From the NCBI RefSeq assembly GCF_054482595.1, contig NZ_CM137008.1: DNA of 64,000 nt; one strand, written 5' to 3'. A model generated the notes under the pieces. That model was given only the letters and a program-made list of their open reading frames with translations. It searched no databases and had not been told where the DNA came from. The position numbers and the translations under genes are program-made. Shown in pieces: positions 21,108-21,716 of the stretch (position 1 is its first letter; every line of letters starts with the position of its first letter).

Positions 21108-21716
21108 TAATTACACTGTGGGTTGACGCCGGAAGAATCAGAGAACAGATACCGTTCTTACTGTAAAACGTGGCTAATATTAATTGAGCACTGCAGTGTT
21201 CAGAGCACAAAGAAGAAAAAAGATGTGTGCGAATGCCTGTAATGTGTTAAAAGAATGTTCCGCGTTTCCGGTACGCTTTTCGTAACTAACAATGCAGGGT
21301 GACGTAACGCTGGTTGTGCCGGAAACGCGTCCCTCCCCCTATTTTTCCTGTTTGGATTTGCCCCTATATTTCTGGATTATCCGACAAAACCGGCGTGAAG
21401 TATTACTCTCGTCGCCCAGCACCATAAGGATAACGCCCATAAAATCATGAAACTTTTCTTCCAGATTGGATACAATCAGGCCGAAACGGTGATGAATATT
21501 ATCCAAATCTGATGGTTCGTAGCGTTTTCAGCCCCCAGATTCTGAGTTGCCTGTAGGGATGATTTCAATTCCCGATTTGTCTATCACATAGAGAAAAAGA
21601 ATTTCATTTCTGTTCACCAGAACCCATGTAACCCACTCCAATTCGTCATTTATCTCACTGATTGCCCTTCATTTATCTCATTGATGCACCGAAAGGTAAA
21701 ACTGCCATCCGGTGCA

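Follow-up and report, generated by a model that had tools for sequence, protein, structure and literature searches.

In a stretch of DNA of 64,000 nucleotides (hereafter, the window), the 20 nt at positions 21353-21372 raise the question whether they are a genuine end of the insertion sequence IS2 and, if so, how this end came to stand alone among its present neighbors. A preliminary description of the window, made from its letters alone, took them for the outer 20 nt of an IS2 terminal inverted repeat, followed by diverging sequence and left as a solo remnant of an old insertion or excision in an IS-rich region.

Identity of the tip and what is left of IS2

The 20-mer TGGATTTGCCCCTATATTTC is located at positions 21353-21372 of the plus strand and occurs only once in the window, even if up to 3 mismatches are tolerated. 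As the reference we used IS2A from E. coli K-12 MG1655 (NC_000913.3, positions 381260-382590, 1,331 bp), annotated in that record as a mobile element with genes insC1/insD1. The reverse complement of its right end starts with TGGATTTGCCCCTATATTTCCAGACATCTGTTATCAC (from outside inward, TGGATTTGCCCCTATATTTCCAGACATCTGTTATCACTTAACCC). Positions 21353-21372 are identical (20/20) to IS2A positions 1331-1312, that is, to the right inverted repeat (IRR) over its outermost 20 nt, with its characteristic start 5'-TGGATTTGCCCC and terminal TG/CA. The similarity ends at nt 21, where the window has TGGATTATCCGAC and IS2 has CAGACATCTGTTA, and the sequence beyond resembles neither IS2 end.

In the blastn-short comparison of the full IS2 with the window, the 20-mer is the sole significant match (E = 7e-5), the rest being 12-13-mers with E of about 1 or more. 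The expectation for one given 20-mer in the window is 2 x 64000 / 4^20, about 1e-7, and none of 100 dinucleotide-preserving shuffles contained it, even with 3 mismatches. Hence, both the proposed match and the divergence after 20 nt hold, and the alignment with IS2 termini that had been suggested as a check, here run against IS2A, yielded a significant match rather than no IS terminus at all.

Judged by its letters, the element is IS2 itself, not merely IS2-like, and specifically its right (donor) end; the tip of the left inverted repeat (IRL) has only 11 of 20 bases in common with the stub in an ungapped comparison. Since TGGATT.. read from left to right is the IRR from outside in, the lost IS2 body would have extended rightward, its genes lying on the minus strand.

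The remnant is indeed solitary, as no second IS2 segment was found by blastn in the 64-kb window, and the IRL 30-mer does not occur there with up to 3 mismatches, nor does the matching 42-bp IRL at about 1.3 kb from the stub. The tblastx comparison of IS2 with the window gave no IS2 coding remnants near the stub: orfA/orfB transposase genes with the programmed -1 frameshift are absent, and open reading frames beside the stub are the methylase fragment described below and noise. The complete 41-bp IRR with its inner protein-binding/anchoring domain (about positions 12-41) is absent as well, no similarity being left from nt 21. Of the two flanks only one survives, with CTGTT as a putative target duplication; this pentamer is also the one duplicated around an intact IS2 in pWS4437A1_52. 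Nor is the stub a miniature, MITE-like IS2 derivative, since the 20-mer occurs once in the window and lacks an inverted partner there. As the terminal sequence is the only defining feature of IS2 that is clearly retained, the stub is an IS2-derived fragment, not a member element. A likeness of 'TTATC' / 'LSDN..EI*' to the end of orfB, considered as a trace of diverged IS2 past nt 20, was rejected as chance (5 bases with a 6-nt gap).

The ends of IS2 consist of a cleavage domain, the outer 11 bp, and a protein-binding domain that is inner to it, with anchoring at about positions 20-42, the IRR being 41 bp long (PMC3299598). The stub keeps the IRR's cleavage domain along with element B next to it, and lacks the inner anchoring sequence. 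Thus, with IS2A (IS3 family, IS2 group) it has in common the cleavage domain, element B and the outer 20 nt, in which the terminal TG (CA-3' on the transferred strand) is included; it has none of IRR positions 21-41, and the 42-bp IRL, orfA/orfB and a second target duplication are likewise missing. Because the anchoring sequence, the left end and the transposase gene are all missing, the stub is predicted to be inert, neither mobile nor, most probably, stably bound by the IS2 transposase. Over the stub, no Rfam family was found (E <= 1), and no promoter-like or terminator-like site was seen on it.

Neighboring pieces and the two junctions

The chromosome of E. coli W2-5 (NZ_CP032989.1, from position 4245167) runs colinear with the window. 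The setting is a genomic island adjoining a tRNA-Leu gene, which together with an integrase bounds it. Within the island are dndBCDE/dptFGH, autotransporters, IS1A, IS91, ISL3, IS66 and several IS3-family fragments, and at least 4 further truncated mobile-element pieces lie within the surrounding 2 kb, in agreement with the earlier impression of an IS-rich region. According to the W2-5 annotation, the dndBCDE phosphorothioation module is complete and is accompanied by the dptFGH restriction genes (27725-42577 and 45927-47463). The RefSeq annotation is blank at 21032-21716, a stretch of about 700 bp holding the stub, which is unannotated in the RefSeq records inspected. The pieces around it are the following.

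20413-21195, plus strand: IS3-family remnant, internally deleted and frameshifted, ISEc31-like (86-91%); RefSeq pseudogene in identical genomes
21196-21352, no strand: piece A, 157 nt, the outer flank of the IS2 tip; homologues only in the same mosaic
21348-21352, no strand: CTGTT, putative surviving copy of the target duplication (cf. duplication CTGTT of the pWS4437A1_52 IS2)
21353-21372, minus strand: solo IS2 IRR tip (IRR positions 1-20); 20/20 to IS2A, unique in the window
21373-21390, no strand: 18 nt between the IS2 tip and the methylase fragment, holding the inner breakpoint
21391-21524, minus strand: N6 DNA methylase gene, an orphan internal fragment cut at both ends, with one frameshift (tblastn and DNA matches)
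about 21538-21681, no strand: end of a Mu-like transposable prophage, its last ~145 bp (88% identity)
21682-21716: hairpin downstream of the LysR gene
21717-22327, minus strand: 3' two-thirds of a yahB-like LysR gene, annotated as a pseudogene
22328-23600 (right end approximate), plus strand: IS3-like element, apparently intact (orfA, orfB, frameshift pseudoknot; from open reading frames and Rfam)

The IS3-family remnant on the left ends with ...CACTGCA at 21195, and matches to its intact relatives end at 21195-21199. The palindrome at 21185-21202 was considered as a junction of two abutted IS elements and rejected, the next bases being unlike the repeat of the remnant. At the left edge of the remnant (20392-20474) there is a sub-threshold match to the Rfam family isrC, an Hfq-binding sRNA (33.5 bits against the gathering threshold of 39, E = 1.7e-4). 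Piece A has no homologue beyond the same mosaic in complete E. coli genomes and PLSDB, and the exact pattern of its flank without the junction has no match in 100,044 species genomes (one genome per species). It contains a 14-bp inverted repeat, CGCGTTTCCGGTAC at 21261-21274 and GTGCCGGAAACGCG at 21316-21329, with 41 nt between the arms.

The outer junction of the stub reads ..ATTTTTCCTGTT / TGGATTTGCC.., the 12 nt outside the tip (21341-21352) being ATTTTTCCTGTT, followed by TGGATTT. Two intact IS2 copies have closely similar flanks, also followed by TGGATTT, namely ..ATTTATCCTGTT in pWS4437A1_52, where the copy is bounded on either side by the 5-bp duplication CTGTT, and ..TTTTACCTGCT in pSTEC299_2, with the duplication CTGCT. 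Hence the outer junction looks like a true IS2 insertion junction, and CTGTT is probably the remaining copy of the 5-bp IS2 target duplication. As the lost IS2 body would have been to the right, the left junction would be the original one between the element and its target.

The likeness of the flanks ATTTTTCCTGTT, ATTTATCCTGTT and TTTTACCTGCT may be due to a target preference of IS2, or to BLAST picking the closest flanks among thousands. The motif ATTTWTCCTGYT is common to the flank of the stub and those of the two intact copies. It is conceivable, though very unlikely, that this motif represents an uncharacterised target preference of IS2 and that the stub is not quite neutral: having the complete cleavage domain of IS2, it may be a site that transposases of IS2 and the IS3 family prefer for landing or recombination, and such end-targeted insertion would, if it occurs, help to keep the block rearranging.

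The inner junction is of a different kind. The 18 nt at 21373-21390, starting with TG directly to the right of the stub, show no similarity to IS2 nt 21-41 and none clear to the methylase gene beyond the YFTP codons. The next recognizable piece is the methylase fragment. By tblastn, 43 aa of it align at 51% identity with residues 96-138 of the pC45-p2 methylase (276 aa); with the YFTP motif after the frameshift, the fragment spans about aa 96-144 of 276. At the DNA level, it is 70-76% identical to 'N-6 DNA methylase' genes from plasmids of Lelliottia, Pantoea, Enterobacter and Klebsiella aerogenes, the parent type being a gene found in leading regions of IncF plasmids. Complete E. coli genomes, PLSDB and a protein search yielded no close intact parent of the fragment, the protein search giving only the same E. 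coli fragment, and a phage collection provided no useful match for 21373-21690. Since IS2 position 20 is joined, after at most 18 nt, to the middle of an unrelated gene, the inner junction, on this arrangement of the pieces, must be due to illegitimate deletion or rearrangement at a later time, which ran into IS2, rather than to clean excision. Of the two origins suggested in the preliminary description, an old insertion scar is thus retained, while excision is not.

Further to the right, the prophage piece is 88% identical to the end of a prophage with gp16, Mor and DUF2786 genes that, in about 105 other E. coli records, lies beside a truncated gudD, and the homology stops at the same base (..TTCATTTATCTCA) in the window and in the related prophage. 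Its tip contains two 17-nt direct repeats, TCATTTATCTCA(C/T)TGAT, 23 nt apart, which are probably transposase-binding sites. The tip is at 21681, and the interior faces the stub, the methylase fragment being between them. The piece is situated 35 bp downstream of the stop codon of the LysR gene, past which the region downstream of K-12 yahB/pdeL shows no homology.

The LysR pseudogene encodes a paralogue of YahB (84.7% amino acid identity to K-12 YahB) and is cut at 22328 by the IS3-like element, which has open reading frames at 22382-22708 and 22705-23595 and an Rfam ALIL pseudoknot at 22663-22779 (116 bits). In E. coli Santai this element is itself split by a group II intron (ltrA reverse transcriptase/maturase), absent from the window and from strain W2-5. 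In ColV plasmids the LysR gene is intact (309 aa) and adjoins yahD/E/F/G/I-like genes; this plasmid cluster (ankyrin, AllH/DUF2877, FdrA/AllF, AllG/DUF1116, carbamate kinase) is a copy of the chromosomal cluster from K-12. To the left of this whole gene, plasmids such as pAPEC-O2-211A-ColV have the same fragments as the window, the IS2 tip among them. As the tip is present where LysR is whole, the stub predates the insertion of the IS3-like element into LysR.

Distribution of the junction

The junction was followed with a 140-nt probe (21293-21432) centered on the stub in 5,426 complete E. coli genomes. It matches 239 records, both chromosomes and ColV-type plasmids, and the whole junction is present at >= 95% identity in 238 of them, the remaining one being an unrelated intact IS2 with a similar flank. 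Moreover, the junction is found in 70 PLSDB plasmids, five of them from Klebsiella, and in all 10 distinct contexts with an intact LysR gene from a large assembly collection. The ancestral state, either piece A with a whole IS2 or piece A or the methylase fragment uninterrupted, was not found in complete E. coli genomes and PLSDB, where the records with one of these two pieces carry the junction too. In GCA_964246605.1 a complete IS2 is located about 2.8 kb from the stub in the same orientation, and may be an independent later insertion.

As one and the same junction recurs across 238 E. coli replicons and Klebsiella plasmids, the event that formed it would be old relative to the spread of the block. 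The nearly 100% conservation of the junction is a result of the recent spread of the block as a whole rather than of selection on the stub. This block of islands and ColV plasmids occurs widely among E. coli of poultry and human origin, and its invariant joints (the end of the IS3-family remnant, piece A, the IS2 tip, the methylase fragment, the prophage end, the yahB-like gene) could mark lineages and be used for following the block between plasmids and chromosomes.

Proposed history and competing explanations

The reading that we favor, with a probability of about 0.88, is that an IS2 insertion left these 20 bp as a dead scar, truncated by a later illegitimate deletion or rearrangement, after which the block spread. 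The identity of the 20-mer, the lack of further IS2 DNA, the kinds of pieces next to it and the constancy of the junction are results of the comparisons, while the order of events, the deletion mechanism and the inertness are inferred. The presumed order is as follows. IS2 would have been inserted on the minus strand into DNA now ending at 21352; a deletion or rearrangement with the breakpoint at IRR position 20-21 would then have removed the other 1,311 bp of IS2 together with the far flank, and the same event would have joined the stub to the unrelated fragment of the methylase gene. A plausible cause is microhomology-mediated strand switching during copy-out transposition, and another is a recA-independent deletion of the ordinary type that IS-rich islands commonly undergo. 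The whole patchwork may have subsequently spread as a block through ColV-type IncF plasmids and chromosomal islands.

Loss by microhomology-mediated strand switching is described for the copy-out-paste-in elements ISApl1, IS30 and IS629, with scars sometimes intruding into the IS ends (bioRxiv 10.1101/2023.06.07.543989). In ISApl1 remnants flanking mcr-1 and in IEE-stimulated IS629 deletions, from few to tens of IS-end bases remain, as in the window; in these scars the deletion is of about the IS length, and the original flanks are joined via 2-4 bp microhomologies (same source), whereas the inner partner of the stub is unrelated DNA. Solo remnants of IS and transposon ends in variable regions of ColV/ColBM IncF plasmids and in tRNA-linked islands have the same setting and the same patchwork of truncated IS elements, and pAPEC-O2-211A-ColV and many similar plasmids carry the very junction seen here. 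Since solo IS-end scars are commonplace in IS-rich islands and ColV plasmids, the stub is already known in kind and is nothing new; it adds one unannotated feature to the 700-bp annotation gap and raises no new biology.

Among the explanations that compete with the dead scar, chance resemblance with no IS2 ancestry could appeal to the shortness of the match, and yet its probability is practically negligible, given the E-value, the 0/100 shuffles at up to 3 mismatches and the small number of expected occurrences; moreover, the match falls exactly at an IS terminus, with the terminal TG of the family coming first, and its flank resembles those of genuine IS2 insertions. Members of the IS3 family share outer repeat bases, and so the 20-mer could belong to the terminus of a different IS2-related element, or of a non-autonomous miniature derivative, that would continue into the DNA on the right; the 18 nt at 21373-21390, which match nothing assignable, would agree with that. 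Still, this is very unlikely because of the adjacent methylase DNA, the missing partner end and the scan of species genomes: the sequence from 21391 is a methylase-gene fragment and not an IS, neither an inverted partner of the 20-mer nor the IRL occurs in the 64 kb with up to 3 mismatches, no transposase-like coding sequence follows on the right, and among the 100,044 species genomes (one each, scanned without a positive control) the base following the 20-mer is never other than the C of IS2.

Slightly better, though quite improbable too, is an explanation that accepts IS2 ancestry and places the insertion of another element, a Mu-like phage or an IS, between IRR positions 20 and 21, with deletions later removing both the end of that element and the remaining IS2. 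IS termini do serve as targets for IS-family elements, a prophage end (165 bp off) and several IS pieces are nearby, and the sequence to the right of the stub begins with TG, as in transposon ends. However, the recognizable adjoining DNA is the middle of a gene and not an element terminus, the prophage end faces away, with the methylase fragment between it and the stub, and more steps are required than for the single deletion of the dead-scar reading.
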